In this document: positions 3,949 through 55,649 of the stretch, one piece after another
How positions within the stretch are numbered: the stretch's first letter is position 1
How the letters are laid out: the number at the start of each line of letters is the position of its first letter
Source of the DNA: an uncultured Verrucomicrobiae bacterium
GTDB lineage: Bacteria > Chlamydiota > Chlamydiia > Chlamydiales > Rhabdochlamydiaceae
DNA: 64,000 nt
Direction of reading: 5' to 3'
NCBI GenBank assembly: GCA_963718565.1
Contig: OY970364.1
Span: 960,001-1,024,000, forward strand
Made by a program: the position numbers and the translations under genes
Notes under the pieces: model-generated
The model's database searches: none
Told to the model about the DNA's origin: nothing
Seen by the model: the letters and a program-made list of their open reading frames with translations, nothing else

Positions 3949-5106
3949 ATGACAAAGGCTGAATTTAAACACTATGACTTGACCTTGGTAGAGCCTACTT
4001 TTGACTCTCCCTTAACGGACCTTATTATCGATTTGAACCATCTCCGGAAAAAACGTTTAGATGGGACGACTCCTTCCCAGATTTTTTTCAACCTCAAGAG
4101 CATTTTCCATATGCTGGAGAGCATCGGCTCGGCGCGCATCGAAGGAAATAACACTTCGCTTCTTGAGTATATAGAGACCAAGCTGGAAGAGAAGGTTGAT
4201 GTGCCTATGGGAGTTAAAGAGATCCAAAACATCGAAAGTGCCATGGATTTCATTGAAAACAACGTAAAAAAACATCCGATCAATCGAGCTTTTGTCAGCG
4301 AAATTCATAGGATGGTTGTTGAGGGATTACCTACTTCACCAAAAGGGGAGGGAGATAAAACCCCAGGTCAATACAGGAAGTCAAATTTACAAATTACAAA
4401 ATCTAAGCATCTGCCGCCAGAGTGGGTACTCGTCGATGAATACATGAACGAATTATTCGACTTCATCAATCAGGACAGCGGCGTAAAATTCGATCTGTTA
4501 AAAACAGCGATCGCTCACCATCGATTCGTATGGATACATCCATTTGGCAACGGCAATGGACGAACGGTGCGTTTATTCACTTACGCAATGTTGATTAAGC
4601 TCGGCTTCAATGTAAATGTAGGGAGAATCATCAATCCTACAGCCGTTTTCTGTAATCACCGAAACAATTACTACAAGTACCTCGAGCAGGCTGATACTGG
4701 AGAAAAATCGGGCATTCTGGCTTGGTGTGAATACGTGCTCCGCGGCCTAAAAGAGGAGATCGAAAAAATTGACAAGCTTCTCGACTATGACTATCTGGCC
4801 AAGGAAATTTTGGTACCCACAATCAACCACTCTCTCGAAAGAAAATATATCACCGATATCGAAGCAAAAATATTGAGAATGGCTATCGAGAAAAAAACAA
4901 TCCAATCAAGTGACTTGAAAGAGATCTTTCAGGGAAAGCACGGCGCAGAACTGTCTCGACAAATCAAGAGGCTTGTGGATAAGAAAATGCTTCAACGCAT
5001 CGGCTTCAAAGACTACGTTATCAGTTTCGGCGACAACTACTTGCTTCGAGGCATCATGAAGGTGCTGGGAGACAAGGATTTTCTGCCTCACCTCGATGGA
5101 AAATAA
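3949..5106 (+). CDS. Fic family protein
   Basis: Fic motif HPFGNGNGRTVR and inhibitory-type motif SARIEGN. Confidence 0.9.
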   Translation: MTKAEFKHYDLTLVEPTFDSPLTDLIIDLNHLRKKRLDGTTPSQIFFNLKSIFHMLESIGSARIEGNNTSLLEYIETKLEEKVDVPMGVKEIQNIESAMDFIENNVKKHPINRAFVSEIHRMVVEGLPTSPKGEGDKTPGQYRKSNLQITKSKHLPPEWVLVDEYMNELFDFINQDSGVKFDLLKTAIAHHRFVWIHPFGNGNGRTVRLFTYAMLIKLGFNVNVGRIINPTAVFCNHRNNYYKYLEQADTGEKSGILAWCEYVLRGLKEEIEKIDKLLDYDYLAKEILVPTINHSLERKYITDIEAKILRMAIEKKTIQSSDLKEIFQGKHGAELSRQIKRLVDKKMLQRIGFKDYVISFGDNYLLRGIMKVLGDKDFLPHLDGK

Positions 5107-5797: not shown

Positions 5798-6270
5798 GTG
5801 CGACACGAGGCTGTCCACGAAGTTGCTTAGCAATAAGCCATCTGTACTACCAGATGAATCTAGGGGTCTGAATAAAGAGCGATCCTGACAACGTAGTGAA
5901 AGACCGAAAGGTTTGGGGAACGAATTGTAAAACAAGGTCCCTCCTGCAAACCACAAGGCGGGTGAGCGCTAGATAGTGAGTAAGGCGAAAGAATTTGAAT
6001 CCGTGTTTAAAGATCGTTATGTGTAACAAGCGAAAGTGGTTGCTACACTTGAGCCAAAATGGCAAGGAAACGAGTGAGACACGAACTGAATATGTCCACG
6101 TAGTTCAATGTTTCCCGGTTGAGAGCGGGCGCCTAACCTCACACATACTTCAAGGATGGAACGTGGAAACCTCATATTGCTCCGTTTTTTTTTGAAAGCG
6201 AAGACAGCTCGTAAGAGATGTCGACAGCAATATGAGATTGAGATGTCGGAAGAAGCAAATGTCGATTAGG
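5798..6270 (+). mobile_element. Group II intron 5' fragment (domains I-III; no RT ORF, no domain V seen)
   Basis: Starts GTGCGACACG at a codon boundary; EBS1-like hairpin gtgtaacaa...ttgctacac; GGAACGTGGAAACC junction; 11-bp stem 6171-6181/6226-6236. Confidence 0.7.
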
Positions 6271-14591: not shown

Positions 14592-14918
14592 TCAAAAGTT
14601 CTGTTCGTATTTATCACCAGGGATAGAAGGAATTTTAACGACGAGAATATGACAGTCCTCTAAAAACACCGGATCAGCAACTTCTCCAGGTTCTATCACG
14701 AATATATCGCCTGGCTTTAACTGCATTTCTTGAATGACCATGCATCCCAGAATTAAACAATTAAATTCCCTGGCCCCCTTGTGAAAATGCCTCGGCCAAA
14801 CTTCCCCCTTCGTATGCCGTTTATAACAGACTTCAAATTGATCGGTCTTAAAAAGAGAGGGTTCAAAATTTCCTAAAAACCATCCTCCTTTAAATTCTTC
14901 TATTCTGTAAAGGTTCAT
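14592..14918 (-). CDS. Small cupin-domain protein
   Basis: GGWFLGNFEP, HFHKGAREFN, GDIFVIEPGEV; 4-bp overlap with the upstream gene. Confidence 0.8.
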   Translation of the reverse strand: MNLYRIEEFKGGWFLGNFEPSLFKTDQFEVCYKRHTKGEVWPRHFHKGAREFNCLILGCMVIQEMQLKPGDIFVIEPGEVADPVFLEDCHILVVKIPSIPGDKYEQNF

Positions 14919-15634
14919 AACATCTCCAGATAACTTTTTAAATCCTCAGGAGTCCCAATCGCGTAATGTTGATCTGCAGGAATTTCATAAATGCCTATAT
15001 TAAGACCTTCTTCAATGAGTTGGTTATACGATTCAGAAATATAAAATTCATTATTCACTCGGATATTTTTAGAAATCATTTTCTCCGCCGATCTGACAAA
15101 ATCTTTACCATGCTTCCAATAGTGGATTCCATTTAACGAATGCGTGCTTATCACCCTTTTCTCCGCAAATCTTATCGCTCGGTTTTCATAAAGTTCCACA
15201 TAGCTATTTTTTTCTGTGGTAGAAAAATAGGTCACGACGAGTCCATCTCTATGCTCATTTAGAGAGATCTCCTTTAAAAAATGATCAGAATTCCATCTCA
15301 TTATTTGATCACAGTTAGCAATAAGTAGTGGATCGTCATTATTGATGAGTTCCTTAGTCAGCAAAATGCTAGATGTAGGTCCTTGCGTGATATAATTAAT
15401 TCTTATTATTTTCGGCCGGCTGCATGAAGTATGAACAGCATCTTTAATCGTTTTATTAAAGGATTCATTTTCATAATCATAGGCTATAAAGATATAGTTC
15501 CCATCGATCCCTAAACTATCAATAGCAGCTTTAATCATGGGCACTCCATTCACATCTATGATGGGTTTCGGAATTTCAAATCCATGATTTCTAAATCGTT
15601 CGCCTCGTCCAGCCATTGGGACAACGATGTTCAT
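14915..15634 (-). CDS. Sugar-phosphate nucleotidyltransferase (NTP_transferase / GT-A fold)
   Basis: MNIVVPMAGRGERF, PKPIIDV, LLIANCDQ, AEKRVIS, EFYIS, GTPEDL. Confidence 0.85.
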   Translation of the reverse strand: MNIVVPMAGRGERFRNHGFEIPKPIIDVNGVPMIKAAIDSLGIDGNYIFIAYDYENESFNKTIKDAVHTSCSRPKIIRINYITQGPTSSILLTKELINNDDPLLIANCDQIMRWNSDHFLKEISLNEHRDGLVVTYFSTTEKNSYVELYENRAIRFAEKRVISTHSLNGIHYWKHGKDFVRSAEKMISKNIRVNNEFYISESYNQLIEEGLNIGIYEIPADQHYAIGTPEDLKSYLEML

Positions 15635-15636
15635 AA

Positions 15637-16818
15637 TCATTCCCCCTTGCCCCATTTGAGGACTGCCTGATGGTATTCCTGTCCATGATCTCCATTAATC
15701 GCCTGTTTCATGGCTCTAACTCCTGATAATGTCCCTCCAGGATGCCCGTGAATCGCTCCACCGCAGTTGGCCATATAATCCACTCCGACCCTTTTGTTAA
15801 TTCCTTCGATCAATCCGGGGTGCATTCCACAACTTAGGGCAGCCACCACATTGCCTTTTCGAAGTGTGTCCATCACTTGATGCATATCATCGCCGCTGGC
15901 ACTGTAATAACCACCCATCATCCCTGCATGAATAAAATCCACACCCATCATCGCTGCTAATTTACAAATAAAATTCCAACGGATATGAAACTGATGAGCA
16001 CTATTTGTCAAAATTTTATCGCCGCTTTTTTGAAAATGGATAAAAAGAGGAAGATCCAAATCACGAAGCGCTTTATACATTCCAAGACCGCTCCAGAAAT
16101 TGACATGAACGGCATTTCCTCCCAATTCATAAACTCTTTTCGCTCGATTTAAAATATGAGGAGTATCTGAATTGATACAGACTGCATAAATCACTTTTTT
16201 ATCTTTTAGATAATTCATAATCAAAGGCACACGAACTTCTAATGGACACAACGGAGGATTTGACATGATTTCATCTTCTTTGATGAAATCCACTCCCCCC
16301 TCTACCATTTCTTTCACCAATTCCAATAGTGTATCAGGAGTGATTCCCACCTTGGGTTTTACAATTCCTCCCAGAAGCGGTTTGCCATAAACTCCTAAAA
16401 AGTCTCTAGCTCCACTCAAACCAAATTGAGGGCCTTTAAATGAGGTTAACATGCATTGTGGAAACTCTACGTCGATTAGCTGACAAGACAGAATGTTTTC
16501 TATATCCATTTGACCACCCATCAATTGACACAACAATTGAGAGATGCCATCTGTGTCAATATCGATGTTGGCGACAGGAAAAGCGATATGGACAACTCCA
16601 CTCTTTTGCGTTTTTAAACACTCCTCACTGCCGATCACTAAACAAGAATGATCTTCGAATAACTGTTGCGTTTCCCAACGATTTCTCACATTGGGATTTC
16701 CCACACTTTGTCCAATCGCTAGATTCCATGCGGCATCGCACAGATGCGTTTTGCTCTCAAGCCAATATTCAGCCACAAAATAATCGTTTTTACTTACCGA
16801 CGATTTAAAAATATTCAT
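15637..16818 (-). CDS. RuBisCO-like protein (form IV-type, predicted non-carboxylating)
   Basis: GPQFG, GGIVKPKVG, GGVDFIKEDE, GVDFIHAG, SCGMHPG, GGAIHGHPGG. Confidence 0.92.
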   Translation of the reverse strand: MNIFKSSVSKNDYFVAEYWLESKTHLCDAAWNLAIGQSVGNPNVRNRWETQQLFEDHSCLVIGSEECLKTQKSGVVHIAFPVANIDIDTDGISQLLCQLMGGQMDIENILSCQLIDVEFPQCMLTSFKGPQFGLSGARDFLGVYGKPLLGGIVKPKVGITPDTLLELVKEMVEGGVDFIKEDEIMSNPPLCPLEVRVPLIMNYLKDKKVIYAVCINSDTPHILNRAKRVYELGGNAVHVNFWSGLGMYKALRDLDLPLFIHFQKSGDKILTNSAHQFHIRWNFICKLAAMMGVDFIHAGMMGGYYSASGDDMHQVMDTLRKGNVVAALSCGMHPGLIEGINKRVGVDYMANCGGAIHGHPGGTLSGVRAMKQAINGDHGQEYHQAVLKWGKGE

Positions 16819-16874
16819 ACCACCACTAATTTTATTAATTATTAATGAAATTTATGTAAAAAAATTAACAATAT

Positions 16875-17543
16875 TTAACTGACAGTCCTTCTCAAAGGAT
16901 GAAGAACATATTCCAAGACAACATTATCGCTTATGGGATGTTCTAAGATGTTTCTAAAATTCTTTGGCATATAATTCACAGAATTCATCTTCATGATATT
17001 TCCGAAACAACCCTCCGGTTGAGCAGACATTCCGTAAAGAGCATTTAATGTGGGTAGATCCTTATAATCCCAAGCATTCATGAAATTTTCAGGAGAAGCA
17101 CATGCAGTAACATCTAAAAAATGCTCTCCGGTGACATAGGCATCTCTTTCAAAGCATTGGTTCAGATCTAATATGTTGTAAGAAGTGTCGAGTCTAAAAA
17201 AAAACACAAAATCATAATTGCTATATGTGTCACGAATTAATCTTGAAGCATTTTTCATCGTTAAAAAATGCTTGAAAGTATTAAACGCAGAGCAGCCCTC
17301 TGGCGCTCTTGTGAGCAATAATTTTTCTTCCACAGTTGCCCGATTCGGCTCATTACACAACACTATGCAATCAAACTTTTCAGACAAATTACCAATAAAC
17401 TCTCTATCTAATTTATTATTCCATGTGTGCAAAACAAATTTAGTTTCATGTTCAACAAACATTTGCGCAATGCGACAAAAATTTGATACGCAAAATTGCA
17501 CATCTGGTCTAACTGGTCCTTTCATAAAGATGACTATTTTCAT
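16875..17543 (-). CDS. Hypothetical glycosyltransferase-like protein
   Basis: MKIVIFMKGPVR...VLHTW...YDFVFFFRLD, resembling glycan-cluster proteins; co-oriented with the RLP operon. Confidence 0.5.
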   Translation of the reverse strand: MKIVIFMKGPVRPDVQFCVSNFCRIAQMFVEHETKFVLHTWNNKLDREFIGNLSEKFDCIVLCNEPNRATVEEKLLLTRAPEGCSAFNTFKHFLTMKNASRLIRDTYSNYDFVFFFRLDTSYNILDLNQCFERDAYVTGEHFLDVTACASPENFMNAWDYKDLPTLNALYGMSAQPEGCFGNIMKMNSVNYMPKNFRNILEHPISDNVVLEYVLHPLRRTVS

Positions 17544-23496: not shown

Positions 23497-24677
23497 ACTC
23501 ACCTTACGCAAAATGGGCTCCAACCATATCGCAACCAGTTCTGAACCGCAGCCGTTCAAGTTCTAAAAATGCCATTCGATTTGCCTTCATCAGTAATTGA
23601 TATTTCAGAGCAAAATGATTCAAAAAAGTTTGAGTTCGGAGAAATTCCAACTTGCAATAAGCGATGATTGATGCAAAAATATGGTTCTTTTGAGAGCGCA
23701 GAACCTTAGTCGGCGATTTCTCAAGGCTAGCGTTCTGCTTGATCGATTTGTGATATTCTTCTATGCGCCACCGTTTTTGGTAGATTTCGTAGATTCGGTC
23801 AGCACTACTTTCTAAGTCATTTGTAACAAGGTATAGAGTGCCTGTAGAGCCGTCTTCGTTTTTGAAGATCTTTGTAATGAGTGCTACAGAAAAAGACATG
23901 TCTTTTAGCCAGACTATTCTTTTTTCTCCATCCTTGAGTGGTAATGCATTTAGATTTTGGTACTGACCATTTTTTCTGTCCTCTTCAGAAAGAGCGACCA
24001 ATCGATTAGCTTTGATCCCAATTACAAACTTCTTTTTCATATCATAATGAATAAACTCCATATTTTTTTTCGCTCCGAACCAATTATCAGACAATATATA
24101 GTCAAATTTAACCTTATTGGTTACAGCTTGGGCAATCATAGATCGAAACATTTGATTTTTACTGACTGAAGACTGTCTTTTTACTTTTTTGCTGGCGACA
24201 TCACAAAAAAGCACGTCTTTATAAATAGGCTCATAAGCAATGGGTAAGGCAATATCTCCGTAGCGAGCAAGACATGATAAAAGGTTGACCCCCTTCACAC
24301 ATCTTCCCTTGGCATGCGAGTAATGCCAGCAAATAATCTCATTTTCGTCCGTGTAGGTCTTCTCTTCAATCGTGTCATCAAAAATAAGCACTCCTCCTAC
24401 ATCTTGTTCAATCTTGCGAATTTCCGGCTTGATGTATTCCCATAGCTCTTTGGATGAAAATTCATTGCTGTTCAAAAATCTAGTAATTTTGTCATGACTA
24501 ATCCGGCCTTCTAAGAGATCTGAGAGACCAACTGCTGTTGCATATTGATTCTGAGCAATCAAGTAATCCGAATAGATATCGAGTAGTCTGTTCATTTTTT
24601 CTCCAAAAAATTGAACAAGACTACGAAAAAAAGACAGGCCTTGTCAAGAAATTTTTACCGATTTGCGTAAGGTGAGT
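23497..24677 (-). mobile_element. IS701-family insertion sequence, full length
   Basis: 16-bp perfect TIR ACTCACCTTACGCAAA; 5-bp DR AATAG. Confidence 0.9.
23504..24595 (-). CDS. IS701-family DDE transposase
   Basis: ISHDKITRFL, IFDDTIEEK, LSDNWF, YQKRWRIEEYHK. Confidence 0.9.
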   Translation of the reverse strand: MNRLLDIYSDYLIAQNQYATAVGLSDLLEGRISHDKITRFLNSNEFSSKELWEYIKPEIRKIEQDVGGVLIFDDTIEEKTYTDENEIICWHYSHAKGRCVKGVNLLSCLARYGDIALPIAYEPIYKDVLFCDVASKKVKRQSSVSKNQMFRSMIAQAVTNKVKFDYILSDNWFGAKKNMEFIHYDMKKKFVIGIKANRLVALSEEDRKNGQYQNLNALPLKDGEKRIVWLKDMSFSVALITKIFKNEDGSTGTLYLVTNDLESSADRIYEIYQKRWRIEEYHKSIKQNASLEKSPTKVLRSQKNHIFASIIAYCKLEFLRTQTFLNHFALKYQLLMKANRMAFLELERLRFRTGCDMVGAHFA

Positions 24678-28195: not shown

Positions 28196-28206
28196 GTGAA
28201 GAAAAA

Positions 28207-28321
28207 CTTGGCGGCGACCTACTCTCCCATACTCTTGCGTACAGTACCATCGGCGAGGAAGGGCTTGACTTCTGAGTTCGGGATGGGATCAGGTATTTCC
28301 CCTTCTCTATTGCCACCAAGA
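28207..28321 (-). rRNA. rrf: 5S rRNA
   Basis: Minus strand has CCCATCCCGAACTCAGAAGTCAAG and GGGAGAGTAGGTCGCCGCCAAG. Confidence 0.95.
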
Positions 28322-28508
28322 CGATTTGTCGAATGAGTCTTAAAGAACTTTATCACTTATGAAAATTGACGCTTGATTAGAGGCTTTATCTTTCAGGGGG
28401 TTGCCCCTTTGGACTAGTCCTCTTGTTTTAAGTTCCATTGGCGCTTAACAGCACCATCAATGACTTGCTCCCTATCTTAGGGACCCCATGCCATTGATGA
28501 AAAATAAA

Positions 28509-31456
<2,948 letters not shown>

Positions 31457-31705
31457 TAAAACTTTTAGCTGTTAAAAGTATTCAATTTTTCGCCAATGTT
31501 CTTAAAACAATTTTTGTTCTCAAGCGCCAATTTTCATCAGTGAATTGTTTCAGTAGTGTCTCTACTGATTTACCACATTTTAAGACTTCCGTGTTGTTAC
31601 ACACTTTATCTTTGTTATTGGTCGCTTTATTTTATTTGAGATTATTTTCTTTTTGACTCTATTCGACTTTCGAGATAGCTAATCCTTTTCGTAAAATGAA
31701 AAGGA

Positions 31706-31779
31706 TGCGGTTACCTAGACTTGAACTAGGGACCTCGACATTATCAGTGTCGCGCTCTAACCAACTGAGCTATAACCGC
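31706..31779 (-). tRNA. tRNA-Ile(GAT), no encoded CCA
   Basis: Cloverleaf, anticodon loop CTGATAA, TTCAAG T-loop. Confidence 0.95.
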
Positions 31780-31788
31780 TTGATTCAA

Positions 31789-31861
31789 TGGAGGTTAGGA
31801 GACTCGAACTCCTGACCCTCTGAATGCAAATCAGATGCTCTACCAACTGAGCTAAACCCCC
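31789..31861 (-). tRNA. tRNA-Ala(TGC), no encoded CCA
   Basis: GGGGGTT/AACCTCC acceptor stem with G3:U70; anticodon TGC. Confidence 0.95.
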
Positions 31862-31954
31862 TGACTTTGTCGGATTCTTAACAGCAGAAACGAAGTGACG
31901 TGGGCAAAATAAAGCTTGTCTCAACCTTAAGGACTACTGTGAGTAGTTTGTCCT

Positions 31955-33508
<1,554 letters not shown>

Positions 33509-33861
33509 AATATTAGTTCTTTAAGCAATTTGCCTTTGAAAAATATAAAAAATTTACAGGCAAATAAGCTGAGTTATTATACTCACTTATCCGCACAAGC
33601 TCTATTTTGCTTGCACATCACTTCATTTCTGATGTTAAGAAAGACTTGAACCAATCTTGTTGACTCTGTTCCTTTTGTGTGAATCCTGAGATTTTATCAA
33701 AAGGAATCAGTAACATACATAAACTTAGGAATTTTCTGCAAATGGATTCGAAAAAACGTGGATTATTCGAGAGAAAAAATTAACTGTGCTGAGGTCTCAG
33801 ATCTTTTTGGGCTATTTGGAAATTTGGCCTTGTTACCCATTAGAGCTCGAACAGATAGATT

Positions 33862-37089: not shown

Positions 37090-37401
37090 ATGAAAAAAAT
37101 ATGTCTTGGACTCTGTGGAATGTTAATATATGCGACAATCATCAATGCTGATGGGTTTAGTGAATTCGACAGAGAACTGATCGGGGCCAAAGATTTCCCT
37201 TTTCCCCCAGGTCAGGGGACAGAAGGATCCATTCCTGAAGCAGATGGATCGGAAACGCCAGATACGGCAAGCAAGAACACGGACTCTTATGATGACGATA
37301 CTTCTTCTAATTCTTCGCAAGAAAACGGAAAATCAGAAAAGGAATATGTCCCTGAAGGCCAGCAAGACGGATCCGATAACAATTCAAGCGAATCTCCGTA
37401 A
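37090..37401 (+). CDS. Small secreted acidic low-complexity protein
   Basis: Signal peptide MKKICLGL...; D/E/S-rich. Confidence 0.65.
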   Translation: MKKICLGLCGMLIYATIINADGFSEFDRELIGAKDFPFPPGQGTEGSIPEADGSETPDTASKNTDSYDDDTSSNSSQENGKSEKEYVPEGQQDGSDNNSSESP

Positions 37402-37414
37402 CAGGGAGGGTTTT

Positions 37415-38857
37415 ATGAGAAAGCCACACTTTTTCCGAATAGCATCTTGGCAGCTGCTCACTTGCAGTTTAGGCGCTGGGTCTTTAGGCTTCGCAGCTCC
37501 TTCCAATCCCAATCCTATTCAGGGAACGTTACATGTCGAAAATATCGACGCACACACATTCATCATCACTGTAAGTGAGGATGCCTATATTTTTTGGGAC
37601 GATTTCTCCATTGATGAGGGCGAGTTGATCGATCTTCATCAACCCTCTGCACAATCTATTGCTGTTGTTGAGGTAGTCTCTGATAAGCCGAGCACGCTCT
37701 TAGGCACCCTAAAATCTAATGGCAGTATCTATTTGATCAATCCTAACGGAGTATTTGTTGATGAAAGCGGATACGTTGACACCTATGGATTTCTTGCTTC
37801 TTCTCTTCCTGCTTGCCCTTGTCCGCTCATCGATGGCGAACGGGATGTTTTCATTCAGGGAGATTCAAAAGCGCCCATCACCAATAGGGGGCGAATCAAA
37901 GCTTGGGAAAATGACGTCTATTTGATGGGATATCAAGTGGAAAATAGAGGTGTCGTCGATGCATCGCGTGGAACGGTTGCTTTTGCTGCTGGACGGGATA
38001 TCATTTTAAATCAGTCTAATGGAGAAAAAATCGGTACTTTCTCTTCTCCAATCAAATATGAGAATGAAGAGACAGGCATCGACAATTCAGGTGTGATCAT
38101 CGCCTCCAAAGCTGAATTGAAAGCAGACGGCAATTCCTATTCTGTTGCGATTCGCCATTCTGGCTTTATCGATGTGATCGGGGTTGAAGGACAAAAAGGC
38201 TTGGCTTATTTAGTTGCAAACAAGGGCGACACTATCGTTTCTGGCGCCATCACAGTAGAAAGTGAAAAGGGGATTGGCGGCGAAATACACATCTTAGGGG
38301 AACGCATCTTCCTTTTTGAGAATTCGAATCTCGATGCCTCTGGAAACAAAGGAGGAGGAAAAGTGATCATTGGTGCAGATGCTGGAGAGCCTAATCCTGG
38401 AATCATTGCACAATTGACTTTCATCGATGAAGCCACTTCCATTCTTGTCGATGCCGTTGATGAGGGCGACGCGGGACAGGTCATCATTGGGTCCGAAGAA
38501 AAAACCTACTTTTACGGTTCCATTAGCGCTTGCGGTGGCGAGAAATCTGGAAATGGCGGAATTGTCGAAATCTTTGGGAGAAAAAGTCTAGATTTTCAAG
38601 GGAAGGTCGATCGTTTTGCCCCCTTTGGAAATGAAGGGATGCTTCTGCTCCACACGGACGATATGATATACCGCGCGCAGGAAGGTTTTGTGAATTTGGA
38701 CTCAGCGAGGCAAAGCACAATCGAAGCTTGCGGTCCGAATGACGAAGCCATAGTGAAAACTATGACTGAGGAAGAGGATCGATTGGGCAAAGCCGCAGCC
38801 AGTCCAAATTCACAAAACCTGACGGAGCGCGGTATAGTGGAAACCCAAGATGAATGA
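37415..38857 (+). CDS. Filamentous haemagglutinin N-terminal (TPS) domain protein with an in-frame palindromic insert
   Basis: WDDFSI, SNGSIYLINPNGV, DASGNKGGGKVIIG, GNGGIVEI. Confidence 0.85.
   Translation: MRKPHFFRIASWQLLTCSLGAGSLGFAAPSNPNPIQGTLHVENIDAHTFIITVSEDAYIFWDDFSIDEGELIDLHQPSAQSIAVVEVVSDKPSTLLGTLKSNGSIYLINPNGVFVDESGYVDTYGFLASSLPACPCPLIDGERDVFIQGDSKAPITNRGRIKAWENDVYLMGYQVENRGVVDASRGTVAFAAGRDIILNQSNGEKIGTFSSPIKYENEETGIDNSGVIIASKAELKADGNSYSVAIRHSGFIDVIGVEGQKGLAYLVANKGDTIVSGAITVESEKGIGGEIHILGERIFLFENSNLDASGNKGGGKVIIGADAGEPNPGIIAQLTFIDEATSILVDAVDEGDAGQVIIGSEEKTYFYGSISACGGEKSGNGGIVEIFGRKSLDFQGKVDRFAPFGNEGMLLLHTDDMIYRAQEGFVNLDSARQSTIEACGPNDEAIVKTMTEEEDRLGKAAASPNSQNLTERGIVETQDE
38667..38836. 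mobile_element. Family B palindromic element, diverged, inverted, in frame within the CDS
   Basis: TATACCGCGC...GCGCGGTATA; 170 bp, 168 net of the TA duplication. Confidence 0.8.
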
Positions 38858-39443
38858 TCTACAACCAGGAGGGAATTGCAATTCCCTCCTGGAAGAGGAA
38901 GATTCAAAACGCCTTTTTTTTGGAGCGCAAGCTCTAGCGCCATGGCCCAAAGATTATCCTCCTGCTAGAATGATCCCTGAAGAAACTCGTCATTTAACGC
39001 TGGCTTTCCTCGGACGACATTCTTTCTCGAAATTTCAAACGATTCTCCCCTCTATCCCACAGCCTTCATTTACAATTGGACCTGCGGGGATTGCTAAAGA
39101 GTTGATCTTTCTCCACTATCAATCGCTTTGGGAGCGCACTCTACTTTCTCCTTTCGATGAATTTGAGCACACAGCAGATATCGCTTTTTTAATTCGCGGC
39201 TATTCAATCCAAGAATTGCATCAGCATGCGCAATTGGCCTTAGCTTTCCAATTTCCTCCGCTGATCAAATTTTATCGTTCACAATCGCAAAATTCGCTTG
39301 AAGAAGTGATCATCTCCTTAAATGAAATCGTTGCCATGGCAGACACTGAATTTGGCTGCCCGTTCAAGGCTGTCAGCTTTCATGGCAATATCCAATCGGG
39401 TGATCAAAACATGTTACACTGGGAGATGGTTGTCGATGTCTAA
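38850..39443 (+). CDS. Fusion of a partial 2H phosphoesterase (ThpR/LigT-like) domain and archease
   Basis: KRLFFG...RHLTLAFLG (HxT), then EFEHTADI...KAVSFH...VVDV archease motifs. Confidence 0.75.
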   Translation: MNDLQPGGNCNSLLEEEDSKRLFFGAQALAPWPKDYPPARMIPEETRHLTLAFLGRHSFSKFQTILPSIPQPSFTIGPAGIAKELIFLHYQSLWERTLLSPFDEFEHTADIAFLIRGYSIQELHQHAQLALAFQFPPLIKFYRSQSQNSLEEVIISLNEIVAMADTEFGCPFKAVSFHGNIQSGDQNMLHWEMVVDV

Positions 39444-40863
39444 TTTAAAACAGATCGCTCCTGCGACTTATCTTGTCCCTCAAGAAGGCGGGATGAGAGT
39501 TCCGGGACTGATCATCGCTACAGAAGAACTTCTCAAAGATATCGAAATCGACAAACCTGTTGAACAGGTACGTAATGTCGCCTGTTTGCCTGGCATTGTC
39601 GGTTATAGCATTGCAATGCCTGATATTCATTGGGGGTATGGCTTTCCCATCGGTGGGGTTGCTGCTATGGATGCAGAAAACGGTGTCATTAGTCCAGGCG
39701 GCGTCGGCTATGATATCAACTGCGGGGTTCGTCTCGCTATTGTTCCGGAAGCTTTTGCTAAACTCAAAGACAACATCAAGAGGGATTTGATCCAACGGAT
39801 CTTTGAGTATGTTCCATCAGGCGTCGGAAGAGGTCAAAAACATTCACGAAGCGTCAGCGAAAGAGATTACTTAGAACTTTTGAAGCAAGGTGCGCGTTGG
39901 TCTGTCGAAAAAGGATTTGGCTTCCCCATAGATCTTGAACATATCGAGAGCAATGGAAAAATCGAAAATGCCGATCCCTCATTAATTTCTGCGCAAGCCA
40001 AAGCGCGCGGCAAAGATCAACTCGGCAGCATTGGCTCTGGCAATCACTTTGTCGAAATCGGAGAAATCGAAACGATCTATCTCCCTAAAATCGCCAGCAG
40101 CTGGGGCGTCGAACAAGGTCTGACTTATGTGTTGATCCATTCAGGGTCGCGCGGTTTCGGCCATCAAGTGTGCCAGGATGCTTTGAATGCCTTCATCCGC
40201 CAAGGCTATGACAAGGATCTTCCGGATCGACAACTCGTCGCTGCGCCGATCAAAAGCGAGGCTGGACAAAATTACTTTCGCGCCATGGCTGCTGCCGCCA
40301 ATTTTGCTTTCAATAACCGACAGCAAATTCTTCATGAAGTGCGTACCGCTTTTCATGAAGTCCTCGGCACTCCTCCGGAAAACATTCATCTCGTCTACGA
40401 CGTCTGTCACAATATCGCAAAATTTGAGACCCATATTGTCGATGGAAAGCCGCGCTGCCTTTGCATCCATCGCAAAGGCGCGACTCGAGCATTGGGTCCT
40501 GGTGCGGAGGAACTCTCTCCTCTATTTCGCAAAACAGGGCAGCCTGTCCTTGTTCCTGGCGACATGGGCCGCGCCAGCCATTTGATGGTCGGCCTTGGCA
40601 ATCCGTTGACTTGGTGCAGTTCTTGCCATGGGGCGGGCCGGGCGCGCAGCCGAGTTAAGTCCATGGCTGCTTGGAAAGGGCATAATGTCATGGAACATAT
40701 GGCTGGGCAAGGAGTCACTGTCTTAGCGTCATCGCATCGGACAGTCGCTGAAGAAATGCCCGATGCGTACAAAGATGTCGATAGCGTCGTTGCTGCCGTC
40801 CAGGAGGCTAAACTTGCCAACAGGGTCGCCCGCCTCAAACCCCATCTTGTAATCAAAGGCTGA
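39436..40863 (+). CDS. rtcB: RNA-splicing ligase RtcB
   Basis: MPDIHWGYGFPIGGV, GYDINCGVR, GSGNHF, HSGSRG, HRKGAT, SCHGAGR, EEMPDAYK. Confidence 0.95.
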   Translation: MSNLKQIAPATYLVPQEGGMRVPGLIIATEELLKDIEIDKPVEQVRNVACLPGIVGYSIAMPDIHWGYGFPIGGVAAMDAENGVISPGGVGYDINCGVRLAIVPEAFAKLKDNIKRDLIQRIFEYVPSGVGRGQKHSRSVSERDYLELLKQGARWSVEKGFGFPIDLEHIESNGKIENADPSLISAQAKARGKDQLGSIGSGNHFVEIGEIETIYLPKIASSWGVEQGLTYVLIHSGSRGFGHQVCQDALNAFIRQGYDKDLPDRQLVAAPIKSEAGQNYFRAMAAAANFAFNNRQQILHEVRTAFHEVLGTPPENIHLVYDVCHNIAKFETHIVDGKPRCLCIHRKGATRALGPGAEELSPLFRKTGQPVLVPGDMGRASHLMVGLGNPLTWCSSCHGAGRARSRVKSMAAWKGHNVMEHMAGQGVTVLASSHRTVAEEMPDAYKDVDSVVAAVQEAKLANRVARLKPHLVIKG

Positions 40864-42831: not shown

Positions 42832-44379
42832 TTATTGCGGAACTTCAGCAAGCTGTGTGGAAGCTGCAAGCTGTTCGCCAGTAGTCATTTGCTTGAATTG
42901 TTTGCCCAAAGAAGTGACGCAGAAAATCCATGCTAAAAGAATGACAAAAAGAATGCCGGCAATGTAGGGTGTTGAAAGGGCTACGCTGCCGAGGAGAATG
43001 ATGAAGCCTTGGTAGGTTAGAGAAGATCCCGATTTGCCGATTCCCGATCCCAGACCATCGATCGCAGCTTTTCCTTTGAGTTTTGATTCTGAGTCCAGTG
43101 GCAAAAAGGCAAGTTCTTTGGTCGCATCGAAGACGGAATATTTGCTCGCTTTACTTAGACAATTCTGGAGCGAACCGCAGTAGACAGTCATTGCAAGTGG
43201 CGTGAGTCCAAAAAGGGTCGAAGAAAGCGCTATGAGTGCGTCCCCACAGAACATAAACGTAAAAAAACCAATGGCCATGGTGGTCATAACCAGAGGAGTA
43301 AGAATCGCAGTAAACGTCCACCCGAAGCGCGTGACCATTAGCGAAAAGAAAATCCCTCCAATTGTCGCTAAAATTCCAATCCCGACAGTGATTTTATTCA
43401 TATGCTCAAGCATTTCGTTCGGATCAGCAAAAAAACGTTTAAGCTGTTCTTTCCAGAGGACATCCGTGAAATTGATGCTGATATTGTACCCTAACACGAT
43501 GATAGCAAGAGGAACGAGGTAACGAGACCGAAGAATATATTTTACACTTTCTCGTAAGGATAAGCGTGATTTCTCAGCATTCGTTGTTTTATTTTCTGCG
43601 GCGGAAACATTTTTTTGTTCAGGTAAGATATTGCGATTGATCCAGTAATAGATAACCATAGCGGCAATGCCTAAAAAAGAAACTAAAGTAACCAATTGAC
43701 AGATCGTGTGATTCCAAGAGTTAGTAATGGAAGAGAGGAATGGTAAAGAAAGGGAATTGCTGAAAGTCAAAGCTAATGTCCCCCCCATGATCGGCGCAAT
43801 GTTCGACCCGATATTGAGGATGCCATAGGTCCGTTTTGCCTCATTCACTTGAGTAGTGTCATTGGCAAATCCCCAATAAAGAACAGATAGGATCATGACA
43901 GCCCAGAGTTCGGAAATGACGTAAAAAGAAGTAAAGGTCCAATTGCGCACAAGTGCGATGAATCCTTGGAACCCCTGCGGTAATACGGAACTCATCCAAT
44001 CGCCTACCTTTTCTAAATGAAGTTCTTGACTATGCGGATATAAATAGAAAGCAAAAAGCAGAAAATAGGCCAAAAAGGAAGAGATCATGATGTAAAACAC
44101 ATTCTCTTTGCTAAAACACCTTCTAAGCCGTGTATAGAACCACGTCGCAAGGAAAACCCCTGGAAGCATCCCCCAAACTTTGATAAAAGGGATCACTTCA
44201 GCGCCAGAGTTTTTTGCAGTCAGGATAATCGTGTCCTTGAGATTGCGCAATACGCCGTAACTGACACACAGTAGAAATAACAAGAAAAGCATGGAAAGGA
44301 CTTTCTTCACCTCTGACCGATGGACCGGCCAGAAAATCGTTCGCCACACACCGAATTGCTCTTTTTTTTCTCTCGTCAT
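42832..44379 (-). CDS. Npt/Tlc family nucleotide transporter (ATP/ADP translocase family)
   Basis: LRNLKD, GAEVIPFIKVW, FYVISELW, SKYSVFDATKELAFLPL, GKSG. Confidence 0.93.
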   Translation of the reverse strand: MTREKKEQFGVWRTIFWPVHRSEVKKVLSMLFLLFLLCVSYGVLRNLKDTIILTAKNSGAEVIPFIKVWGMLPGVFLATWFYTRLRRCFSKENVFYIMISSFLAYFLLFAFYLYPHSQELHLEKVGDWMSSVLPQGFQGFIALVRNWTFTSFYVISELWAVMILSVLYWGFANDTTQVNEAKRTYGILNIGSNIAPIMGGTLALTFSNSLSLPFLSSITNSWNHTICQLVTLVSFLGIAAMVIYYWINRNILPEQKNVSAAENKTTNAEKSRLSLRESVKYILRSRYLVPLAIIVLGYNISINFTDVLWKEQLKRFFADPNEMLEHMNKITVGIGILATIGGIFFSLMVTRFGWTFTAILTPLVMTTMAIGFFTFMFCGDALIALSSTLFGLTPLAMTVYCGSLQNCLSKASKYSVFDATKELAFLPLDSESKLKGKAAIDGLGSGIGKSGSSLTYQGFIILLGSVALSTPYIAGILFVILLAWIFCVTSLGKQFKQMTTGEQLAASTQLAEVPQ

Positions 44380-44655
44380 AACGATCTCAAACCCTCCAAT
44401 TGTACTGAACAGAGATATTTTCTCAAACAAGTTTTTCGGAATTTCGGAATCTCATGGCGCTGGGTATTAGAAAAAAATTTTGCAATTCCCTCTTTATCTT
44501 GACAATACGTACCCAAGATATGGAGCATACAATGAGTTGATTTGTCGCAAAAAAAATTTTATTTAACGAAAATACTAGAAAAAAAAGATCGAAATTTTCT
44601 ATGTCATTACAAATGCAGTCATCAAATGTCCCCTCTATTTGGGCGAGGAGAAAAA

Positions 44656-54529: not shown

Positions 54530-55649
54530 TACTCTAGAAAATTGAAGTCTGGAGAGGATTGAGTTCAATTGTTTGGAAATTGTCGTTAATTCGCTTTTTC
54601 AGCATGTCTTTTAAATTAATAACGCCAGTGTTGAAAAAATCTCTAATTTTCTCAGTAAATTCATTGAATTTTGAATACAGTGTATTATAAGTAACACACT
54701 CTCTCATAACTTTCCATAAACGCTCAATAGCATTCAAATTTGGGGAATACGGAGGTAAGTAGTGTATTTGAATTTTGGTTTGGCTATCCAAATATTTTTG
54801 CACTTCCTTATTCTTGTTTGATCTGCCGTTGTCTAAGATTAAGTGGATTTTTTTTGCATCTGTATTAGCCGCTAACGTTTGGAGAAAATCGACCGCACTT
54901 GCAGCATCCACAGTGCTATATTCCTTCGTCACGACTTGCATTGCAGTCAATTCAATGGCACCAATAAAATGCAATCGCTCTTGCTTAGCGGTTGTTCCTA
55001 ATGTCTTTATTTCGTTTTTTAGGATCCACCCAGCCACAGACTGGCTCTGATACTCAGGGTGTACAGCATCTCCAAAGAAAATTTTCTCGCCTTCTTGGAG
55101 ACCGGCTTTCAATTCATTGTATTTTTTAAGGAACGCAGCTTGTTTTTCGGGATCGAGCTTTCCTGGTACTTTGATTGGATGTTTATAAACAAATCCATGC
55201 CTCTTCAACCAATTTGTCATACCAGCCACAGTGTATTTCACTTGATATGCGTCTAGAACGTAGAGACAAATTTTGCTCATTTTGAGATACGTTATTTGAC
55301 TCAAATGTCTCCTCAGCGCATCTTCTTGGTCTAGGGTTAACTTGGAGGCCTTTCCCAAATGTGGATCATTGATAGTTTTTTGCTTGGCATCGTATTCTCT
55401 TTGATAATCATAAACGGACGACTCGCTAATTCTTAAAATCGCCGCTATTTCCCCTGGACTGTGGCAATCATCCCTACCTAAAATGACGCATACACGGTTC
55501 CGTTCGTTGACATCTCTTGTTTTTTTTACAAGCTGTTCTAAATATAAACGCTGCTCATTGGACAACTTTTGCATAGAAGCATTATCCACTATCGCTGAAA
55601 TATTTTTTAGGGAAATTTAAAATTTTACAGAATCCAATCATGAATAGTA
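54530..55649 (-). mobile_element. IS630-family insertion sequence
   Basis: Imperfect TIR starting TACT; TA duplication; inserted in msrA. Confidence 0.88.
54534..55589 (-). CDS. IS630-family transposase
   Basis: FGDAVHP, ILDNG, LPPYSPNLNAIERLW. Confidence 0.93.
   Translation of the reverse strand: MDNASMQKLSNEQRLYLEQLVKKTRDVNERNRVCVILGRDDCHSPGEIAAILRISESSVYDYQREYDAKQKTINDPHLGKASKLTLDQEDALRRHLSQITYLKMSKICLYVLDAYQVKYTVAGMTNWLKRHGFVYKHPIKVPGKLDPEKQAAFLKKYNELKAGLQEGEKIFFGDAVHPEYQSQSVAGWILKNEIKTLGTTAKQERLHFIGAIELTAMQVVTKEYSTVDAASAVDFLQTLAANTDAKKIHLILDNGRSNKNKEVQKYLDSQTKIQIHYLPPYSPNLNAIERLWKVMRECVTYNTLYSKFNEFTEKIRDFFNTGVINLKDMLKKRINDNFQTIELNPLQTSIF

Follow-up and report, generated by a model that had tools for sequence, protein, structure and literature searches.

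A RuBisCO-like protein encoded with a nucleotidyltransferase and a cupin in a candidate sugar-activation cassette of an uncultured, plausibly chlamydial bacterium

Results

Within the window, that is, the whole 64,000-nucleotide stretch of DNA that was analysed, positions 14592 to 17543 hold a block of four co-oriented genes on the minus strand, with coordinates that are exact by ORF analysis. They encode a 222-aa protein (16875..17543, minus strand), a putative transferase that a family profile suggests to be a distant DUF7796-like member; a RuBisCO-like protein of 393 aa (RLP; 15637..16818, minus strand), recognized by PF00016 and placed by our tree in a "form IV-like" clade linked to nucleotidyltransferases; a putative sugar-phosphate nucleotidyltransferase (NT; 14915..15655, minus strand; 246 aa as the longest ORF), suggested by NCBIfam, PDB, and PHROG matches; and a small metal-type cupin of 108 aa (14592..14918, minus strand), recognized by its motif, its model, and a PHROG match. 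The 222-aa gene and the RLP gene are separated by 56 nt, the NT and cupin genes overlap by 4 nt, and the RLP and NT genes overlap by 19 nt when read as longest ORFs. The likely NT start is Met8 at 15634, where NT relatives begin and where the alignment with a fused NT-DHBP synthase of cyanophage S-SKS1 also starts; RLP and NT then abut, with 2 nt between them. At 37.9%, the G+C content of the block is below that of the window as a whole (42.4%) and of its two flanks (43.0% and 42.5%), and its genes have a GC3 of 0.33 to 0.37, compared to 0.40 to 0.45 in three adjacent genes. The ORFs and the base composition agree with the original prediction, which had described four co-oriented genes, the last three abutting or overlapping, in a stretch richer in A+T than its surroundings. 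A fatty-acid desaturase and outer-membrane-like proteins are the block's neighbours, and IS elements are present in the window. A scan for promoters and terminators found no excess over shuffled sequence (14 observed versus 15.2 and 6 versus 4.3, respectively).

The RLP scores above the gathering cut-off of the Pfam RuBisCO large-subunit family (RuBisCO_large, PF00016; 9.7e-35, 120.7 bits versus 30.1), while its N-terminal domain (PF02788) reaches 18.2 of the 20.7 bits needed, a threshold that is passed in relatives such as L018 (41.6 bits). It stays below the NCBIfam cut-offs for MtnW (two models, 165.9 versus 409 and 137.2 versus 513.6 bits), OiaX (6.3e-45, 153.7 versus 700 bits), RuBisCO type III (165.5 versus 497 bits), and RuBisCO form II (96 versus 489 bits), and among solved structures it comes closest to a DK-MTP-1P enolase (PDB 2oek; 1.5e-36, residues 15 to 375). 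Its active site was mapped by alignment to the form I CbbL of Cupriavidus and is given here in spinach numbering. Judged by this alignment, the RLP retains the enolisation core, namely K175, K177, K201, D203, E204, and H327 (Lys154, Lys156, Lys180, Asp182, Glu183, and His297 of the RLP), and it also keeps the phosphate-loop residues S379 (S329), G381 (G331), and G403/404 (G353/354). The residues replaced are E60 (G36), T65 (N41), N123 (G102, with Q103 adjacent), H294 (Q263), R295 (K264), H298 (D267), and K334 (Y304); with the exception of T65, these replacements are common to all 30 aligned clade members, bar a few variant rows. All residues that are invariant among 24 aligned clade members, of which the block's RLP is itself one, are retained. 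Q103 aligns with a position of the DK-MTP-1P enolase whose lysine we take to be catalytic. In RuBisCO, the loop of G381 and G403/404 binds the C1 phosphate; this kept loop, together with an altered C5-phosphate site (R295 to K, H298 to D), would suit a ketose-1-phosphate no less than ribulose-5-phosphate. The original prediction had read by eye that the KPK lysines, the carbamylation lysine, the DFIHAG histidine, and the phosphate loops are kept, that E60, N123, and H294 are replaced, that the loop-6 lysine is missing, and that the protein is no carboxylase, and the alignment leads to the same conclusions, with G36, G102, Q263, and Y304 as the replacing residues. A bona fide RuBisCO of forms I to III was rejected on the grounds that required residues are replaced, the form scores lie below their cut-offs, and RbcS is missing; from its residues, the RLP is predicted to be unable to fix CO2.

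The NT has only weak Pfam matches (NTP_transf_3, PF12804, at 21.2 bits, below 27), yet its orthologues pass PF00483 (e.g., L077 at 52.7 versus 21.2), and it matches NCBIfam sugar-1-phosphate nucleotidyltransferase families over its full length (1e-10 to 1e-5), as well as PDB 4evw (1.3e-10) and phrog_3980 (4e-59). The N-terminal nucleotide loop (G-x-G-x-R) is present as MAGRGERF. Pfam matches of the cupin are likewise weak and below cut-offs, and it matches phrog_24762 at 9e-34. Its motif, H44-x-H46-x4-E51-x6-G58, is conserved across 30 family members, whose invariant columns the block's copy keeps. An AlphaFold model (pLDDT 96.9) gave 154 PDB matches at E ≤ 0.001 in Foldseek, all cupins among the matches listed, with the mini phosphomannose isomerase of Thermococcus as the best (7zvm, E 4.7e-6) and 7zvy also near the top. 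On the basis of the barrel model and the H-x-H...E motif, the 108-aa protein is predicted to be a metal-binding cupin.

For the 222-aa protein, neither Pfam nor NCBIfam gave a match, and a large protein collection held three homologues at E ≤ 0.001, one of which is the block's own protein. Its nearest Atlas clusters are viral (score 0.97), some of them carrying DUF7796, and the profile of family C6_248 matches it at 1.7e-6, compared to 1e-44 for gp208 of cyanophage Bellamy and 9e-37 for SWZG_00044 of S-SKS1. A jackhmmer search for this DUF7796-like family reaches 45 ORFs, found in 41 of the 125 RLP loci described below. Searching with a low-confidence model (mean pLDDT 59.9) returned no fold at E ≤ 0.001, the best matches being retaining GT-A enzymes (GT6, GT8) at a weak ~3e-3. 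The family recurs beside the cassette, and the protein may be the transferase for the activated unit, although this is the weakest assignment in the block.

A search for proteins related to the RLP returned 2666 at E ≤ 1e-10, the best 120 of which are 61 to 88% identical to it. Viral relatives number 334, all of them on uncultivated contigs; none of 50,697 GenBank phage records matched the RLP. In our tree, which was built without MtnW, DeepYkr, IV-Photo, and IV-NonPhoto reference sequences, 30 NT-linked RLPs separate at 100/100 support from OiaX-type RLPs, form I, and true RuBisCOs. The sequences nearest to the block's RLP come from one uncultured bacterium and viral contigs: a 95/97 group joins it with L005, from a Beckwithbacteria metagenome-assembled genome (57% identical), and with viral contigs. 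By this proxy, with L005 and the viral contigs standing in for the published sequences, the tree assigns the RLP to the "form IV-like" clade that Jaffe, Castelle, Dupont, and Banfield described from phages and Beckwithbacteria in 2019 (PMC6389311). As the original prediction had expected, none of the characterised salvage or catabolic families includes it: its NCBIfam scores are 137 to 166 bits versus cut-offs of 409 to 700, and it has a separate position in the tree.

Gene neighbourhoods were surveyed at 125 RLP loci (45 cellular and 80 viral); because descent and transfer link these loci, they do not give independent counts. An NT is present within 3 kb of the RLP in 118 of them and a cupin in 78; when RLPs are collapsed at 90% identity, 90 of 96 clusters have an NT at this distance. 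At least 13 arrangements of the cassette occur, and this variation across loci indicates that the linkage of RLP, NT, and cupin is not one frozen operon. Fusions join NT to RLP (P0099), RLP to NT and cupin (P0124 and P0125), and NT to cupin (18 loci). As a control, neither an NT nor a cupin was found at the six loci whose RuBisCO-family gene falls outside the clade, and these proteins retain the full set of carboxylase residues. The linkage to NT and cupin that the original prediction had suspected is thus conserved across viruses, bacteria, and archaea and extends to gene fusions. Elsewhere, the commonest fourth partner is a mini GDPD-like protein, which by family assignment is phosphodiesterase-like and acts on phosphodiesters; it lies within 7 kb in 101 of the 125 loci and is absent from that range in 24, those of Legionellaceae included. 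In the window and in the block's own genome, this partner was looked for and not found. A LicD phosphotransferase adjoins RLP and NT in all four Legionellaceae loci. L003, the closest relative, has lost both NT and cupin. Glycan genes near the relatives include glycosyltransferases (GT2, 8, 9, 17, 25, and 61), WavE, Bac_transf, a flippase, DegT, SDR dehydratases, and many sugar methyltransferases, and the same islands contain fusions of a β-phosphoglucomutase-like HAD protein to the NT (L006, L066, and L077). The glycan operon of the original prediction therefore holds for the relatives, which sit in glycan islands, but not for the block, which has no wider glycan operon around it.

The same NT family also occurs in cyanophage cassettes without an RLP. 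The block's NT is 34 to 43% identical to NTs in 17 of 22 matched phage records, all of Synechococcus phages; in Bellamy (gp205-gp211) and S-SKS1 (SWZG_00042-44), identity is 34 to 35% and, as in the block, a DUF7796-like gene is a neighbour, and Bellamy and SynMITS9220M01 share the cupin (47 to 49% identity). In place of the RLP, these cassettes carry RpiB, DHBP synthase, a class II aldolase, or a PfkB-like kinase, and the NT is fused to ribose-5-phosphate isomerase B in Bellamy gp206 and to DHBP synthase in S-SKS1.

The block's own genome is 95% complete and consists of one contig. It has no RbcS and no member of the IF-2B/MtnA family (the control for the latter matched in 9 of 14 genomes), and its one match to PF00485 lies far outside the window. 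Because this family covers uridine kinases as well and also matches in E. coli, the match is not diagnostic of phosphoribulokinase. These results agree with the original statement that PRK, rbcS, and mtn genes are missing from the window, and for RbcS and IF-2B/MtnA the absence extends to the whole genome. A ribulose-phosphate 3-epimerase is encoded. None of 40 relatives' genomes contains the RLP, which makes horizontal acquisition of the block probable, as originally suggested and in keeping with its lower G+C content; the adjacent desaturase is found in two of five same-genus genomes, at 52 to 53% identity. Five nucleotide-transporter matches and a 16S variant that we take to be of the chlamydial type make a chlamydial identity plausible; the Chlamydia-specific Pfam family PF02415 has no match in this genome. 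Another such family, PF03504, gave no match here, which is uninformative because its control matched nowhere either. The sequencing runs found comprise five DNA runs of soil metagenomes and no RNA.

Discussion

In this study, we describe four genes that probably constitute a horizontally acquired, mobile "RLP sugar-activation cassette," whose product would be a sugar-like unit, activated by a nucleotide and destined for an envelope glycan. Without the residues needed to add CO2, to hydrate, and to cleave a C-C bond, the RLP most likely enolises a ketose monophosphate. It would take ribulose- or xylulose-5-phosphate from the pentose-phosphate pool and, upon reprotonation, yield an isomer or epimer with no other source in the cell; such an entry point is suggested by the NT fusions to RpiB and DHBP synthase in the RLP-less cyanophages and by the genome's own ribulose-phosphate 3-epimerase. 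The metal cupin, with its mini-phosphomannose-isomerase-like fold, may then carry out a ketose/aldose isomerisation or an epimerisation of the RLP product, a step that would be dispensable in some lineages. Going by its family membership and fusions, the NT would join the phosphate of this product to an NMP, giving NDP-X, and the DUF7796-like 222-aa protein might pass X or X-phosphate to an acceptor, which is the weakest step. Against this explanation, the block is without the GDPD-like partner and without adjacent glycan genes and may thus be an incomplete or idle copy.

As for the nature of NDP-X, we prefer a CDP-alcohol-type donor of a phospho-ketose or phospho-polyol over a classical glycosyl donor. 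The evidence that points this way is the LicD gene beside RLP and NT in Legionellaceae, the phosphodiester-acting GDPD-like partner, and the chemistry of DHBP synthase, which uses ribulose-5-phosphate and whose product lacks an anomeric phosphate. The chemistry would work like the routes to CDP-ribitol, CDP-arabinitol, and CDP-methylerythritol (TarI/TarJ, AbpA/AbpB, and IspD), in which a pentulose-phosphate derivative is activated on its primary phosphate by a GT-A-fold nucleotidyltransferase and the phospho-unit is passed on by LicD-type enzymes. To our knowledge, none of these routes uses a RuBisCO-fold enzyme, and the block's NT is not a member of the TarI, AbpA, or IspD equivalog families of NCBIfam. 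Two observations speak for the classical route, in which RLP and cupin would produce an unusual aldopentose-5-phosphate, the phosphate would be moved to C1 by a mutase (of HAD type at other loci and supplied by the host in this case), and the NT would form an NDP-pentofuranose for a GT-A-like transfer: the best family matches of the NT are, by sequence, sugar-1-phosphate enzymes that it matches over its full length, and the HAD-NT fusions could reflect a mutase-type route to a sugar-1-phosphate. The resemblance of the cupin to phosphomannose isomerases and the GT-A glycosyltransferases among the best fold matches of the 222-aa protein are also in line with it. Still, the block has no mutase, the GT-A matches come from a model of low confidence, the minimal systems pair RLP and NT with LicD, a phospho-alcohol transferase, the commonest accessory is phosphodiesterase-like, and the DHBP synthase fused to the NT in S-SKS1 makes a product that cannot form a glycosyl-1-phosphate, all of which leads us to regard this route as unlikely, if a serious contender. 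It is close to the scheme of the original prediction.

The block could also be the remnant of DNA received from another bacterium or a phage, standing outside a working pathway or only partly functional, as might be surmised from the missing GDPD-like partner and flanking glycan genes, the loss of NT and cupin in L003, the IS elements, and a region that varies within the genus, as the patchy desaturase illustrates. We give this reading a small chance, given that all four reading frames are intact and of full length, the tight or overlapping junctions are preserved, the clade-invariant residues of the RLP and the invariant columns of the cupin are kept, and the 24 loci of the survey without a GDPD-like gene nearby show the same deficit. 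A role in sulfur or methionine salvage deserves mention in view of Rhodospirillum rubrum, where, in the accounts consulted, an RLP isomerises methylthioribulose-1-phosphate in the MTA-isoprenoid shunt and DXP is formed when a cupin releases methanethiol, the RLP-cupin pair being a hallmark of this pathway (PMC4958253, PMC5893883). Likened by description, this enolisation-based isomerisation of a pentulose phosphate by an RLP with a small cupin is the best mechanistic analogy to the block (PMC4958253); yet, as far as these accounts go, the shunt serves salvage rather than biosynthesis of an activated unit, has no NT, and needs MtnA. The alternative salvage role, that of a DK-MTP-1P enolase, finds some backing in the best solved relative: the MtnW/YkrW enzyme of Geobacillus (2oek) and the RLP both keep K175, K201, D203, and E204, and both lack the carboxylation residues. 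However, the RLP falls below the MtnW equivalog cut-offs, has a glutamine at the position of the enolase's catalytic lysine, comes from a genome without an IF-2B/MtnA isomerase to supply the substrate, and has other gene partners, its conserved one being an NT that is sometimes fused to it, inside viral glycan islands; we therefore hold either salvage role to be very improbable. Hardly any weight falls on a catabolic acid-sugar RLP, that is, an OiaX decarboxylase or transcarboxylase in an apiose- or tetronate-like pathway, even though the OiaX model detects this protein of the same superfamily and plasmid OiaX genes are 30 to 33% identical to it. OiaX-type RLPs form a separate 100/100 group and keep H294, R295, and K334, which are lost here, the OiaX score is far from its cut-off, and a four-carbon acid-sugar kinase gene, none of which occurs in the block, follows the RLP in all four non-form-I plasmid loci fetched. 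A nucleotide-catabolic function in the AMP pathway was likewise dismissed, since the genome has no IF-2B family isomerase and the gene context is one of biosynthesis.

For the "form IV-like" proteins, Jaffe et al. reported divergent key residues and a distribution pointing to lateral transfer, both of which apply to the block's RLP, but the portions of their paper on which we draw leave the function open and do not mention NT, cupin, GDPD-like partners, or glycan islands (PMC6389311). Compared to the phage and Beckwithbacteria carriers in that account, the present copy resides in an intracellular bacterium. In the openly accessible literature searched, we came across no report connecting an RLP with a nucleotidyltransferase or with the synthesis of glycans, and none that gives a function for the cassette. 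As part of the explanation that we consider likely as a whole, the cassette would circulate among large uncultivated phages, SAR11, Patescibacteria, DPANN archaea, Legionellaceae, and others.

All characterised RuBisCO-like proteins that we know of act in salvage or catabolism. If our explanation is true, a clade of RLPs locked to an NT, sometimes by fusion, in glycan islands would represent a biosynthetic role for the RuBisCO fold, together with an undescribed activated sugar. More tentatively, and with doubts that outweigh our confidence, we speculate that this clade is the first to employ the fold in biosynthesis, where a ketose of the pentose-phosphate pool is rearranged to a keto-sugar phosphate, converted by the NT to a new CDP-alcohol-type donor, and used by LicD-, DUF7796-, or GDPD-like enzymes for a phospho-sugar decoration of the envelope, with marine phages spreading the pathway to SAR11, ultrasmall bacteria and archaea, and intracellular bacteria. 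The clade is large and present in abundant ocean bacteria, and the cassette product may be widespread on cell surfaces and influence how phages and hosts recognize each other. For the genome studied here, it would mean that an intracellular bacterium has taken up a phage-type module for envelope modification.

Results

Four minus-strand open reading frames occupy positions 14592 to 17543, exactly as in the original prediction: a 222-aa protein without assigned identity (16875-17543), a 393-aa RuBisCO-like protein (RLP; 15637-16818), a 246-aa nucleotidyltransferase (14915-15655) and a 108-aa cupin (14592-14918). The first two genes are separated by 56 nt, the RLP and nucleotidyltransferase genes overlap by 19 nt when both are taken as longest ORFs but abut if the latter starts at Met8, as in its relatives, and the last two overlap by 4 nt. 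The block is indeed AT-richer than its flanks: its G+C content is 37.9%, whereas the window averages 42.4% and the flanks lie near 43%, and its GC3 is also below that of the surroundings. A fatty-acid desaturase gene lies downstream and, on the opposite strand upstream, genes for a protein of no assigned function and a beta-barrel outer-membrane-like protein. Overall, the window is variable and rich in mobile elements, with an IS701-family (23504-24595) and an IS630-family transposase (54534-55589), both on the minus strand. On the plus strand, it also holds a match to RF02012 (group II intron D1-D4; 5838-5969, 75.7 bits), a Fic-domain protein (3949-5106), a protein with a filamentous-haemagglutinin N-terminal domain (37244-38857) and an RtcB-family RNA ligase (39322-40863), for which an intein-containing relative of RtcB is the best model.

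The RLP matches PF00016 (9.7e-35), and its best solved relative is the DK-MTP-1P enolase 2oek (1.5e-36), yet it falls far under the cut-off of all curated NCBIfam models: 165.9 bits against 409 for MtnW PRK09549, 137.2 against 513.6 for MtnW TIGR03332, 165.5 against 497 for type III RuBisCO, 153.7 against 700 for OiaX (3-oxo-isoapionate-4-phosphate decarboxylase) and 96 against 489 for form II. Aligned to Cupriavidus form I CbbL (spinach numbering), it retains K175, K177, K201, D203, E204, H327, S379, G381 and G403/404, whereas E60 is replaced by G36, T65 by N41, N123 by G102, H294 by Q263, R295 by K264, H298 by D267 and K334 by Y304; the loss of E60, N123, H294 and K334 had been anticipated by eye. 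This pattern is common to 30 aligned clade members, with few variant rows, and Q103, next after G102, is invariant among those aligned. The residues that serve enolisation and those that serve CO2 addition, hydration and cleavage are established in RuBisCO enzymology; judged by this alignment, the RLP keeps the carbamate/Mg2+ enolisation core and has lost the machinery for the later steps. A carboxylase role is, at the level of residues, ruled out by the substitutions.

A large protein collection yielded 2,666 RLP homologues (E <= 1e-10), the best 120 of which are 61-88% identical, many from marine surveys. When one genome per species was scanned, 55 RLP loci emerged among 141 candidate stretches, in Pelagibacter and Pelagibacteraceae, Patescibacteria (including a Beckwithbacteria MAG), Woese-, Nano-, Pace- and Micrarchaeota, Planctomycetota, Verrucomicrobiota, Bacteroidota, Elusimicrobia, Azospirillum, one Francisellaceae genome and four Legionellaceae. 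IMG/VR held 334 relatives among 377 stretches, of which 80 were kept, on contigs of up to 294 kb; eight of the kept contigs carry the database's label giant-virus MAG. The RLP was not found in any GenBank phage record. In an IQ-TREE tree of 40 sequences, whose bootstrap had not quite converged, 30 nucleotidyltransferase-linked RLPs stand apart, with 100/100 support, from OiaX of Rhizobium, a pair of kinase-linked RLPs from plasmids, form I CbbL and six true RuBisCOs, which together with the NCBIfam scores places the RLP outside the characterised clades considered in the original prediction; separation from MtnW, DeepYkr, IV-Photo and IV-NonPhoto, absent from the tree, rests on those scores and on Jaffe et al. 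(2019). The sister of the window's RLP (100/100) comes from an uncultured bacterium (locus L003; 75% identical), and a wider set (95/97) adds viral contigs, Pelagibacter and Patescibacteria, including the Beckwithbacteria MAG. By sequence, the clade appears to match the "form IV-like" clade that the accessible text of Jaffe et al. (2019, PMC6389311) describes from phages and Beckwithbacteria, there with no function assigned; the accessible part of a 2020 preprint (10.1101/2020.06.19.156794) describes the expression of a form IV-like RLP in surface waters of the Arctic. A literature search whose coverage stopped short of subscription journals and supplements found no paper giving the clade a function or tying it to a nucleotidyltransferase.

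ORFs were called in 128 loci and scored with the window's proteins, giving 125 loci with an RLP ORF. The predicted linkage is conserved: a nucleotidyltransferase lies within 3 kb of the RLP in 118 of the 125 (90 of the 96 clusters formed at 90% RLP identity) and a cupin in 78, while within 7 kb a ~150-aa protein resembling glycerophosphodiester phosphodiesterases (GDPD-like) is found in 101 and a relative of the 222-aa protein in 41—counts that, given the common descent of the cassettes, do not represent independent events. Gene order varies: 46 of the 80 viral loci have nucleotidyltransferase-cupin-RLP, 12 further arrangements exist, and fusions join nucleotidyltransferase to RLP (protein P0099), RLP to nucleotidyltransferase and cupin (P0124 and P0125; 813 and 817 aa) and nucleotidyltransferase to cupin (18 loci). 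Six control loci with a RuBisCO-family gene at most 30% identical, which keeps all carboxylase residues, have neither nucleotidyltransferase nor cupin. Given the rearranged orders and independent fusions, we argue that selection holds the cassette genes together. In the sister locus (L003:6989-10624), a DUF7796-like gene lies 1.8 kb from the RLP, arginase and ornithine cyclodeaminase genes adjoin it, and nucleotidyltransferase and cupin were not found within 7 kb, which suggests a cassette that has decayed or been split. Four Legionellaceae loci (L042 to L045; e.g., L042:5636-8865) show a minimal set of three genes, LicD phosphotransferase (1e-42), RLP and nucleotidyltransferase, with no cupin or GDPD-like gene.

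The GDPD-like family (phrog_34507; e.g., L030:5785-6243 and L061:8182-8622) has the HRG...E.D...HD motif of glycerophosphodiester phosphodiesterases and a profile match to PDB 3i10 (4.9e-5), with no Pfam match; searches of the window and the whole genome did not find it. In other cells and in viruses, the genes around the cassette are glycan genes: glycosyltransferase families 2, 8, 9, 17, 25 and 61, WavE, the initiating transferase Bac_transf, a flippase, DegT aminotransferase, GDP-mannose-dehydratase-like SDRs, CMP-sugar synthetases, Maf-like proteins and many TylF-, FkbM- and MT24-type methyltransferases. The proposed glycan setting thus holds among the relatives but not in the window's genome, where the block's neighbors, the desaturase and the outer-membrane-like protein, mean that there is no larger glycan operon. 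One viral cassette (L100:8975-12659) adjoins a TPP enzyme, an HpcH-like protein, a DHQ-synthase-like protein and an SDR, which may form a second small-molecule pathway, at a guess phosphonate-type or cyclitol-type.

Close homologues of the 222-aa protein are nearly lacking: the large protein collection has three, one being itself. It is matched (1.7e-6) by the profile of a recurrent cassette-neighbor family that also finds Bellamy gp208 (1e-44) and S-SKS1 SWZG_00044 (9e-37), the Atlas clusters closest to it are viral and in some cases carry DUF7796, and its low-confidence model (pLDDT 59.9) has GT-A transferases as best fold matches (E about 3e-3). Together these make a dedicated transferase plausible; the GT-A resemblance, which would fit the glycosyltransferase-like first gene originally proposed, is weak.

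The cupin family has a conserved H-x-H...E metal motif, and the cupin model (pLDDT 96.9) is closest to miniature Thermococcus phosphomannose isomerases (7zvm, E 4.7e-6). The nucleotidyltransferase family occurs in 22 phage records without an RLP, 19 of them Synechococcus phages. Two isolate cyanophages share the window's family but have, in place of an RLP, a fused enzyme: ribose-5-phosphate isomerase B in Bellamy gp206 (L139:6001-7158) and DHBP synthase, whose substrate is ribulose-5-phosphate, in S-SKS1 SWZG_00042 (L140:6001-7428; PF00926, 5e-65). Downstream of Bellamy gp206 come a window-type cupin gene and then one of the DUF7796-like kind; genes for a PfkB-like kinase, HAD phosphatases and a class II aldolase lie close by.

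The RLP was absent from all 40 relatives' genomes searched (18 from its own genus, 6 more from its family and another 16 from its order; 31 at least 90% complete), and the adjoining desaturase is patchy within the genus. TLC-family nucleotide transporters are typical of energy-parasitic intracellular bacteria, and the genome's five matches, including an NTP/NDP exchange transporter (42832-44430, minus strand; TIGR00769, 5.6e-147), fit an obligate intracellular bacterium. A complete minus-strand rRNA operon (28206-33510) comprises 5S (28206-28320), 23S (28509-31453) and 16S (31957-33510) genes, with two tRNAs in the spacer (31706-31861); the 16S carries GCTGCGGTAATACGGAGA at 32958-32975, with the GCTGCGG variant that we take to be the chlamydial probe target. 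The chlamydial identity given in the original prediction is plausible on these grounds; a search with the chlamydia-specific Pfam family PF02415 found no match in its support.

Discussion

Horizontal acquisition, as originally proposed, and a recent one, is the best reading of the block's origin, given the lack of the RLP in relatives, the patchy desaturase, the transposases, the low G+C content and the viral and foreign nearest sequences. The missing GDPD-like gene would agree with the block being a decayed remnant in this genome, and it may be one, against which stand four intact reading frames and retained conserved residues. A salvage role for the RLP is unlikely, since no MtnA-family isomerase was found in the genome, no score reaches equivalog level, and a glutamine occupies the position of the enolase's catalytic lysine. 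Acid-sugar catabolism is likewise unlikely, as clade, residues and context all differ: in all four non-form-I plasmid loci fetched, a four-carbon acid-sugar kinase gene lies directly downstream of the RLP, whereas the cassette RLPs sit among glycan genes.

The nucleotidyltransferase fusions to ribose-5-phosphate isomerase B and DHBP synthase suggest that the pathway starts from the pentose-phosphate pool; a ribulose-phosphate 3-epimerase is present in the window's genome. On the type of donor, the evidence is divided. A classical glycosyl donor would agree with HAD-nucleotidyltransferase fusions and with the resemblance of the nucleotidyltransferase to sugar-1-phosphate enzymes, and the phosphate loop kept in the RLP, the C1-phosphate-binding one of RuBisCO, also counts against a CDP-alcohol-type donor. 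We nevertheless prefer the latter because of LicD beside RLP and nucleotidyltransferase in the four Legionellaceae loci, the GDPD-like cassette partner and DHBP, which has no anomeric carbon; the product of the cassette would be a CDP-alcohol-type donor of a phospho-ketose or phospho-polyol.
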